A stretch of 26,414 nucleotides of DNA from Escherichia coli. GTDB taxonomy: Bacteria; Pseudomonadota; Gammaproteobacteria; Enterobacterales; Enterobacteriaceae. The stretch lies in the NCBI RefSeq assembly GCF_003334815.1, contig NZ_QOWO01000047.1; one strand, given 5' to 3'. The position numbers were made by a program. Positions 3,001-6,000 of the stretch are shown here, piece after piece; position 1 is the first letter of the stretch, and each line of letters starts with the position of its first letter.

Positions 3001-6000
3001 GTACGTTAACTATGGGCTGAAAGCGCTGAACATCCATGGTGGGCAAAAGCTGACGTTAGCCGAACATGGCGGAGCCTATGGCGCAACGGCCGATATGTCG
3101 GCAAAAATCGGTGGTGAAGGGGATCTGGCAATCAATACGGTGCGACAGGTTTCGCTTTCCAACGGTCAGAACGACTATCAGGGGGCAACCTACGTTCAGA
3201 TGGGGACATTACGTACCGATGCGGATGGTGCACTTGGCAACACCCGGGAACTGAACATCAGCAACGCGGCCATCGTCGATCTTAATGGATCGACGCAGAC
3301 GGTAGAGACATTCACCGGGCAGATGGGTTCGACTGTTTTGTTCAAAGAGGGGGCGCTGACGGTAAATAAAGGTGGGATCAGTCAGGGTGAACTGACAGGT
3401 GGCGGAAACCTGAATGTTACAGGGGGAACGCTGGCTATCGAGGGGCTTAATGCACGCTACAATGCGTTAACCAGCATTAGCCCAAATGCGGAAGTCAGCC
3501 TCGATAATACTCAGGGGTTAGGCAGAGGAAATATTGCCAATGACGGTCTGTTAACGCTAAAAAACGTGACTGGCGAACTGCGTAATAGCATAAGCGGGAA
3601 GGGTATCGTGAGCGCAACCGCCAGGACAGATGTAGAGTTGGATGGCGATAATAGCCGCTTTGTGGGGCAATTCAACATTGATACAGGCAGCGCGCTCAGC
3701 GTCAACGAGCAGAAAAACCTGGGTGATGCTTCCGTTATCAATAATGGCCTGCTCACCATCTCCACTGAGCGTAGCTGGGCGATGACGCACAGTATCAGCG
3801 GTAGCGGTGATGTGACAAAACTGGGTACCGGGATCCTGACTCTTAACAACGATTCCGCGGCGTATCAGGGTACGACGGATATCGTGGGGGGGAAATTGCT
3901 TTCGGTTCCGACTCTGCCATTAATATGGCAAGTCAACACATTAATATCCATAACAGCGGTGTGATGTCGGGAAATGTCACCACTGCAGGTGATATGAACG
4001 TTATGCCTGGGGGGGCACTGCGTGTCGCTAAAACCACTATCGGCGGCAACCTGGAGAATGGCGGCACGGTTCAAATGAATAGCGAAGGGGGGAAACCGGG
4101 GAATGTACTGACCGTTAACGGCAACTATACCGGAAACAATGGCCTGATGACGTTCAACGCGACGCTGGGCGGCGATAATTCGCCCACCGATAAGATGAAC
4201 GTGAAAGGCGATACCCAAGGGAACACTCGCGTTCGGGTTGATAACATTGGCGGCGTCGGTGCACAAACGGTCAACGGTATTGAACTCATTGAGGTTGGCG
4301 GTAATTCTGCAGGTAACTTCGCGCTGACCACCGGAACTGTCGAAGCTGGGGCTTACGTCTACACGCTGGCTAAAGGGAAGGGGAATGACGAGAAAAACTG
4401 GTATCTGACCAGTAAATGGGACGGCGTAACGCCAGCGGATACACCCGATCCCATCAATAATCCCCCTGTTGTGGATCCGGAAGGCCCATCAGTTTATCGC
4501 CCGGAGGCCGGAAGCTATATCAGCAACATTGCCGCAGCCAACTCGCTGTTTAGCCATCGTTTACACGACCGTCTGGGTGAGCCGCAGTATACAGATTCAC
4601 TGCATTCTCAGGGGTCGGCAAGCAGTATGTGGATGCGTCATGTCGGAGGGCACGAACGTTCAAGGGCCGGTGACGGTCAGCTAAATACTCAGGCTAACCG
4701 CTATGTATTGCAGCTAGGCGGCGATTTGGCGCAGTGGAGTAGCAACGCGCAGGATCGCTGGCATCTTGGCGTGATGGCAGGCTACGCCAATCAGCACAGT
4801 AATACTCAGAGTAATCGTGTGGGTTATAAATCGGATGGGCGCATCAGCGGTTACAGCGCTGGGCTGTACGCGACCTGGTATCAGAACGATGCGAATAAGA
4901 CCGGCGCTTATGTTGACAGCTGGGCGCTGTATAACTGGTTTGATAACAGCGTCAGTTCCGATAACCGTTCTGCTGACGACTATGATTCTCGCGGTGTGAC
5001 GGCCTCTGTTGAGGGTGGGTATACCTTTGAAGCGGGAACATTTAGCGGCAGCGAAGGGACGCTGAATACCTGGTACGTCCAGCCACAGGCGCAAATCACC
5101 TGGATGGGTGTGAAAGATTCCGACCATACCCGGAAAGACGGAACGCGCATTGAAACGGAAGGCGACGGAAATGTGCAAACGCGACTTGGGGTGAAAACCT
5201 ACCTGAACAGCCATCACCAGCGTGACGATGGTAAACAGCGTGAGTTCCAGCCTTACATTGAAGCGAACTGGATCAACAATAGCAAAGTCTACGCCGTGAA
5301 GATGAATGGTCAAACCGTAGGCCGTGAAGGTGCGCGTAATCTCGGTGAAGTACGTACCGGGGTTGAGGCGAAAGTAAATAACAACCTTAGCCTGTGGGGG
5401 AATGTCGGTGTGCAACTAGGTGATAAAGGCTATAGCGATACTCAGGGCATGCTGGGAGTGAAATATAGCTGGTAAACCGTATAAGCCGCATGTCGAGATG
5501 GCATGCGGCTTAATATTGCCGACTTCAAACGGCGCATCAACGCCTTATTTAAATCCTCCTTTTTATCCGCGATCGCGGATATCGCAGCGTTTATCCCGTA
5601 GAGCGGATAAGATGTGTTTCCAGATTGACTTATCCTCACTAAAGGATAAAACTTATAATATCCCCTTAAGCGGATAAACTTGCTGTGGACGTATGACATG
5701 ATGAGCTTTCAGAAGATCTATAGCCCAACGCAATTGGCGAATGCAATGAAACTGGTTCGCCAGCAAAATGGCTGGACGCAGAGCGAGCTGGCGAAAAAAA
5801 TTGGTATTAAGCAGGCGACGATTTCCAATTTCGAAAACAACCCTGACAATACCACGCTCACGACATTTTTTAAGATTTTACAGTCGCTTGAACTCTCAAT
5901 GACGCTATGCGACGCGAAAAATGCCTCGCCAGAATCAACAGAACAGCAAAATCTGGAGTGGTAATGCCTAAACTTGTCACTTGGATGAACAACCAGCGGG

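Follow-up and report, generated by a model that had tools for sequence, protein, structure and literature searches.

Recurrent poly-G frameshifts in yneO, an ECSE_1600-family autotransporter gene of Escherichia coli, and their probable origin in replication slippage

Introduction

The yneO gene of Escherichia coli belongs to a family of large autotransporter adhesins, and its pseudogene status in K-12 and other strains is already known. Here we describe a further copy, located on a 26,414-nt stretch of contig NZ_QOWO01000047.1 (RefSeq assembly GCF_003334815.1), hereafter the window, in which a run of seven G residues at 3886-3892 (G7; tract A) has eight residues (G8) in intact alleles and breaks the reading frame. 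A second poly-G run (tract B) lies 123 nt downstream of tract A. Comparison of both tracts across E. coli suggests that the frameshift is probably a case of recurrent mutational decay at a slippage hot spot in a dispensable adhesin gene, and not a dedicated phase-variation switch.

The intact form of the family is exemplified by ECSE_1600 of strain SE11, a protein of 1806 amino acids (aa) which falls, like yneO, in the NCBIfam family NF011422 and has the same architecture of an ESPR signal peptide, a long repeat passenger with PATR repeats, an autochaperone/pertactin domain and a beta-barrel. Oshima et al. (2008, PMC2608844) described an intact copy of the gene in SE11 and HS and a truncated one in MG1655, E24377A and Sakai, and reported that B2 strains have none. 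The SE11 allele differs from the window copy in being intact (G8 at tract A, G7 at tract B), and that report does not describe the poly-G tracts as recurrent break points. The K-12 gene occupies the same locus (lsrK - yneO - hipBA), is 99.96% identical to the window copy and is also inactivated by a one-base poly-G change. The K-12 lesion, however, is a change from G7 to G8 at tract B, with G8 at tract A, whereas in the window copy tract A is a G7 run, tract B keeps the intact-type length (G7) and an IS1 element lies at codon 42.

Comparable tracts are known from other genera. The autotransporter genes capC/capD of Campylobacter are associated with poly-G runs (inside the coding sequence (CDS) in capD) that vary in length, and intact and inactive copies are lineage-associated; the authors considered lineage-specific decay, and not tract length, to be behind most of the inactivation (PMC7168839). 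In several lineages of Listeria monocytogenes a poly(A) tract in the adhesin gene inlA has independently undergone frameshifts that truncate the protein, at a frequency about 1000-fold above that of point mutation (Orsi et al. 2010, PMC2831843). The inlA tract lies at the 5' end of its gene and its reversion has been measured experimentally, whereas the yneO tract lies 70% into the gene. Our literature search found no description of poly-G runs as recurrent break points of yneO, ydeK or ECSE_1600.

Gene identity

From position 177 onwards the whole window aligned with 1,572-1,598 kb of MG1655 at 99.95% identity, with 11 mismatches and two one-base gaps. The autotransporter gene corresponds to yneO (b4696; MG1655 1592665-1598086; formerly ydeK and ydeU), which is annotated there as a pseudogene and lies between lsrK and hipB. 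The genes downstream of it are the same in the window as in MG1655, namely hipBA, ydeTSRQ, ydeP, safA, ydeO, ydeN, ydeM, yddA, yddB and pqqL. A 601-nt query around tract A found matches in 4273 of 5426 complete E. coli genomes, where the matching feature was nearly always named 'ECSE_1600 family autotransporter'.

An intact orthologue is present in strain EC4 (CDS of 5421 nt; WP_001310821.1, 1806 aa). The window copy matches nt 122-5421 of this CDS (5300 nt) with one mismatch and one gap (99.96% DNA identity), the sole gap being the G run, which is G8 in EC4 and G7 in the window. The EC4 protein matches NF011422 from end to end, with 4178 bits against a curated cut-off of 2335. Pfam and NCBIfam searches of the intact protein identified a PATR repeat (PF12951, aa 1253-1281; TIGR02601, aa 1253-1283), the autochaperone AC_1 (PF18883, aa 1332-1438), pertactin (PF03212, aa 1335-1452) and the beta-barrel (PF03797, aa 1525-1784). 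Both the PF03797 barrel and the autochaperone/pertactin domain are encoded in the downstream frame of the window. The window copy lacks a single continuous open reading frame (ORF) with an N-terminal signal peptide, being interrupted by IS1 after codon 42 and by the G7 frameshift; it is a pseudogene of an ECSE_1600-family, AIDA-I-type (type Va) autotransporter.

The frameshift at tract A

The initial annotation had proposed that the G7 run splits the autotransporter into two ORFs in different frames, and the seven G residues are indeed present in the context ...gatatcgt GGGGGGG aaattgc.... The passenger-frame ORF (167-3964) ends in ...TTDIVGGKLLSVPTLPLIWQVNTLISITAV at the TGA codon at 3962-3964. 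The downstream frame is open from 3847, directly after a TAA at 3844-3846, reads ...GGEIAFGSDSAINMASQ... and stops at 5473-5475; within it an ATG at 3925 begins a 516-aa ORF (3925-5475). Products identical to this 516-aa ORF are common in public annotation (two protein clusters with 555 and 195 members, P0020 and P0024).

The joined product predicted from a repaired G8 run (...DIVGGEIAFGSDSAIN..., containing ...DIVGGEIAFG...) is exactly what intact orthologues have, so that the joined frame does exist. It was further claimed that only a change to G8 or G5 could join the two frames; this is too narrow, since any insertion of one base or deletion of two bases between 3847 and 3961 would fuse them, yet only G8 recreates the orthologous protein. 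The placement of the split at the boundary between passenger and beta-barrel had to be revised. The break falls in codons 1277-1280. These belong to the passenger, in its last PATR repeat, and the autochaperone domain lies about 55 aa and the beta-barrel about 245 aa further on. The codons GTG GGG GGG GAA for Val1277-Gly-Gly-Glu1280 create the G8 run. Because the break lies within this repeat, the last part of the passenger is encoded in the downstream ORF, as are the barrel (aa 1525-1784) and, ahead of it, the autochaperone/pertactin domain (aa 1332-1452). This ORF lacks a signal peptide and, judged from its sequence, could presumably not be exported alone.

Tract-length variation across E. 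coli

Tract lengths were counted with queries of 86-90 nt, short enough for a single mismatch or gap to lower the identity below 99%. The counts are exact matches among the roughly 4150 complete E. coli genomes in which the locus is present, and up to 83 partial matches at 100% identity may inflate each of them. With a 200-nt query the identity stays above 99% despite one indel, and the cross-tabulation of tracts A and B was therefore counted from the rows at 100%. At tract A, 2370 genomes had G8, 432 had G9, 349 had G7, 124 had G10 and 116 had G6. The genomes outside these counts have single-nucleotide polymorphisms (SNPs) in the flanks or a tract that is interrupted. Among them are the O157/O55:H7 type, with G8 in 283 genomes and G7 in 25 of about 308, and the divergent E. 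coli allele CS6L, in which the tract is interrupted (GGGTGGTG). An independent sample of 41 metagenome contigs, many of which bear SPAdes-style NODE names, gave G7 twice, G8 in 34 and G9 in five. The run had initially been called a slipped-strand site, and this polymorphism from G6 to G10, seen also in metagenome contigs, bears that description out.

The in-frame state of tract A is G8, and G7 and G9 alleles are annotated as 'frameshifted'. In-frame G8 is also the majority and ancestral state at tract A. At tract B the majority and ancestral state is G7 (1163 genomes), while G8 was found in 389 genomes, mostly K-12 derivatives; G8 at tract B combined with G7 at tract A also occurs in clones other than K-12.

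Haplotypes were compared in 24 loci fetched from complete genomes, with identity defined over 1317 ungapped columns, or over 1000 nt upstream once metagenome contigs had been added. Haplotypes identical by this measure fell into three classes, with G7, G8 and G9 all present in each, and more G7 or G9 alleles were found on other backgrounds. Length changes thus arose many times: the 60 sequences compared would require at least about 10 independent events at tract A. The length polymorphism and its homoplasy are direct observations, as are the frameshift and the G8 run in intact alleles. The tract-length counts are not phylogenetically independent, and the genome collection is biased to K-12, O157 and clinical clones, both of which count against the hot-spot account given below.

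In a lineage comprising ST648, ECONIH1 and IMT16316, alleles with G7 share a 780-nt deletion starting 40 nt after tract A, a second deletion of 232 nt and the loss of hipBA; the yneO locus is decaying there along several routes.

A scan of genome contigs for DNA-level orthologues in other species found only E. coli contamination. Two contigs encode proteins 100% identical to the autotransporter, JARKOR010000214.1 (a 'Candidatus Nanosynbacter' metagenome-assembled genome) and NZ_MTSD02000163.1 (an Oceanospirillum linum assembly, with the K-12 signature of G8 at both tracts); both are almost certainly E. coli contamination or mis-binning. The protein search outside E. coli gave only distant homologues, in E. 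albertii (56% identity) and Pseudocitrobacter (56%). The site of tract A is Ala-Gly in the former, which cannot encode a long G run, and Gly-Gly in the latter.

Origin and meaning of the frameshift

We consider it probable that the frameshift arose by decay at a mutational hot spot. Replication slippage would have removed one G from the G8 run in the last PATR repeat, translation would then end 23 codons further on, and the passenger would be cut off from the autochaperone and beta-barrel required for its export. The G8 run appears to be the most mutable site of the gene, changing repeatedly and independently to G7 or G9, and also to G6 and G10, across E. coli, and the neighbouring run at tract B would have gone from G7 to G8 in K-12 by the same kind of slip. 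On this account the tract is a hot spot that usually gives the first knock-out of the gene, one that is in principle reversible, and irreversible lesions may follow, such as IS1 in the window and deletions in other genomes. The change itself would be a slow heritable mutation and not a fast switch. The comparison of the tract across genomes favours such a heritable hot-spot frameshift over a fast programmed switch, and leaves assembly error as a minority reading.

Several observations bear on this. The G7 alleles of O121:H19, E110019 and UMNK88 and the G9 allele of ST540 all give uninterrupted 1806-codon ORFs when the tract is set to G8, and pairwise ratios of nonsynonymous to synonymous divergence (dN/dS) among divergent yneO alleles are 0.07-0.19; yneO has thus been functional during most of its past, with frameshifts that are recent or transient. 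Dead copies vary as well. O26:H11, O103 and E2865 share a 232-nt deletion and have G9, G9 and G8 at tract A, respectively, and the O157 lineage is frameshifted elsewhere in yneO, yet polymorphic (G8/G7) at tract A; variation of the tract therefore needs no selection on expression. Clones are largely uniform (G7 in many O121:H19 isolates, G9 in O26:H11, G10 in mouse M-series and MRSN isolates), and this sharing of alleles within clones argues for slow, heritable change.

The same data can be read as those of a low-rate contingency locus, in which the poly-G run is kept because it lets a population turn a surface adhesin ON and OFF reversibly, and the G7 of the window is an OFF state later locked by IS1. 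We regard this as unlikely. In its favour, a frame-shifting repeat tract lies within the ORF and its length is polymorphic between strains and homoplasic, ranging from G6 to G10 with about one quarter of the matching genomes out of frame; the three main lengths all occur on identical haplotypes, and a second variable G tract lies close by. Precedents exist in autotransporter and adhesin genes, namely Campylobacter capD, Neisseria, Bordetella and Listeria inlA (PMC7168839, PMC2831843, PMC1891110). OFF alleles are intact apart from the tract and lie in a gene under purifying selection, which is also what a genuine phase-variable gene would show and thus counts against decay as the only explanation. 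Set against this are the equal variation in dead copies, the slow change implied by alleles common within clones, the position of the tract at codon 1278 of 1806 and not near the 5' end, and its interruption in CS6L and impossibility in the E. albertii homologue. In Campylobacter, which has no mismatch repair, poly-G tracts serve as fast switches throughout the genome, whereas mismatch repair is active in E. coli; to our knowledge, E. coli is not known for homopolymer switches of core adhesins, which further counts against a contingency locus. The composition of the gene, which is rich in Gly (15%, with 34 Gly-Gly pairs), was taken into account by 5000 synonymous-codon shuffles of the intact CDS. 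Runs of at least seven G were mildly enriched (three observed against 0.59 expected, P 0.02), those of at least eight were not significantly so (one observed against 0.13 expected, P 0.13), and the enrichment is mild and not compelling. Conservation of the tract is uninformative among E. coli yneO alleles, which are too alike (dS about 0.04). Among close relatives the tract does vary, as in about eight K-12 laboratory assemblies with G7 at tract A and G8 at tract B (A7/B8) and in the minority G7 alleles of the O157/O55:H7 type, in a setting where error is inseparable from mutation and most clones are uniform. That the G8 run and the neighbouring G7 run form a genuine contingency locus, with a core-genome adhesin switching reversibly and fast enough to matter within a host, is doubtful; such switching, if real, would account for the out-of-frame state of about one quarter of genomes alongside purifying selection on the remainder of the ORF. 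From the alleles compared, membership of yneO in the phase-variable class, whose members switch reversibly at about 1e-5 to 1e-2 per generation with an ON/OFF phenotype, is not established. A literature search found no usable figures for per-run indel rates of G8 runs in wild-type E. coli.

An error of assembly or base-calling is another reading of the G7 run: the strain would really have G8 at 3886-3892, and possibly also at 4009-4015 as in K-12, and the consensus would have lost one G in long runs. Several points favour this reading and count against decay in the window. No reads stand behind the G7 call. Of the 11 homopolymers of at least 7 nt in the K-12 region, the only two that differ in the window are the two G8 runs, both of which are G7 here. 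The DH5alpha assembly NZ_CP025520.1 (CP025520) has G7 at both tracts where MG1655 has G8 at both, for which systematic under-calling of G8 homopolymers is the simplest account, and which calls for caution with all public tract-length counts. Some public G7 calls are probably errors as well, since the A7/B8 assemblies mentioned above include MG1655 CP009685, C600 CM181231 and ER1709, and sister assemblies of the same strains have G8 at both tracts (A8/B8). Together, DH5alpha and these assemblies suggest a floor of roughly 2% miscalls or laboratory mutations. One metagenome contig (L055) carries two SNP alleles of the window and is as close to it as K-12 is, yet is A8/B8. On the other side, the G7 allele of tract A is real and frequent, found in many independently sequenced O121:H19 isolates, in UMNK88 and E110019, and in two of the 41 metagenome contigs; at tract B the majority of alleles have G7, which is also the ancestral length; and a run of eight A residues in the window is unchanged from K-12, with no other indels in 26 kb. 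A rough Bayesian estimate, with natural A7/B7 taken at about 10% and miscalls in K-12 assemblies at about 2%, gives about 10-20% for an artefact, and we judge it improbable. Recoding is far less credible still. The seven G in the passenger frame form a formal X_XXY_YYZ heptamer (G_GGG_GGG), and a -1 slip by the ribosome, or transcriptional slippage, could partly rescue G7, a -1 slip giving exactly the wild-type ...DIVGGEIAFG.... Yet no stimulatory RNA structure lies downstream of the run (z = -1.0), nothing suggests a programmed arrangement where in-frame G8 is the majority and ancestral state, and IS1 removes the start codon and signal peptide in the window anyway. The heptamer thus occurs without the downstream structure and conserved arrangement that go with it in programmed -1 frameshifting. 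No terminator-like sites were found in 3600-4100, where there are three weak promoter-like matches.

Recurrent decay by slippage thus remains the reading we favour. For the window itself it means very little, the gene being dead twice over. More broadly, the usual first lesion in this adhesin gene would be a one-base slip in one of two poly-G runs, which accounts for the many split 'autotransporter beta-barrel' ORFs that annotation pipelines give at the yneO locus. In E. coli assemblies the tract may also be of practical use as a natural marker of unstable or miscalled homopolymers. Invertible elements and Dam methylation are otherwise the main known bases of phase variation in E. coli; a repeat-mediated phase-variable adhesin would join them should switching at yneO turn out to be rapid and under selection.

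Features of the locus and the IS1 insertion

The features of the yneO copy are listed in Table 1.

Table 1. Positions of sequence features of the yneO copy in the window
Feature	Position	Strand	Basis
Terminal 180 nt of IS1 element, ending in inverted repeat ...AGTAAGTTGGCAGCATCACC	1..180	-	Sequence; intact EC4 5' end
Passenger-frame remnant: codons 43-1279 of 1806, then 23 out-of-frame codons, TGA 3962-3964	181..3964	+	EC4 CDS comparison, NF011422
Last PATR repeat, aa 1253-1281 of intact protein	3812..3897	+	Pfam PF12951, TIGR02601; motif GTTDI.GGE in homologues
Tract A: G7 here, G8 in intact alleles; -1 frameshift	3886..3892	+	Sequence, EC4 comparison, population counts
Downstream frame: passenger end, AC_1/pertactin (~4048-4410), linker, beta-barrel (~4627-5406)	3847..5475	+	ORF reading, Pfam
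Tract B: G7 here as in intact alleles; G8 in K-12 MG1655	4009..4015	+	Sequence comparison, genome counts
Further G7 run, length as in intact allele, interrupted in B1/E alleles	829..835	+	Sequence comparison
Two G6 runs in same gene	1369-1374, 4087-4092	+	Sequence comparison

The view that the gene is disrupted twice holds, IS1 also cutting it at codon 42. The gene resumes at window position 181, which is nt 126 of the 5421-nt CDS, placing the cut after about nt 125. Both the start codon and the region of the ESPR signal peptide are on the far side of the insertion sequence, outside the window, the intact 5' end being taken from EC4. The IS1 half of a query spanning the junction matched thousands of IS1 copies, and the exact junction of the window was found in no complete E. 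coli genome. Insertions of IS1 at other positions near the 5' end of yneO, within the first ~650 nt of the gene, were found in four genomes (QL57EC, 18AR0366, G3/10 and OY754364), and the 5' region may be a recurrent IS1 target. One evolution study mentions yneO, solely as a target of IS2.

Other differences from K-12 in the window

Downstream of the autotransporter gene (7036-23492) the window differs from MG1655 by 10 substitutions, of which seven are nonsynonymous, one is nonsense and two are synonymous; this ratio fits very recent divergence or random errors. The amino-acid changes are hipA A358E, ydeT L41F, ydeO P147L, ydeN A144V, yddB I501V, pqqL L76R and F185L, and a stop in place of L27 in safA. 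The hipA substitution at 7036 is private to the window among 45 other sequences. In safA (14181-14378), which encodes a 65-aa two-component connector, the SNP at 14260 changes codon 27 from TTA to TAA compared with K-12 and creates a premature stop; all three other sequences covering the site have T.

The fimbrial usher gene ydeT (8139-9287) is present only as a 382-aa C-terminal remnant, as in K-12, and yneL, upstream of it, is a pseudogene in K-12, so that the neighbouring ydeTSRQ fimbrial cluster also looks degraded.

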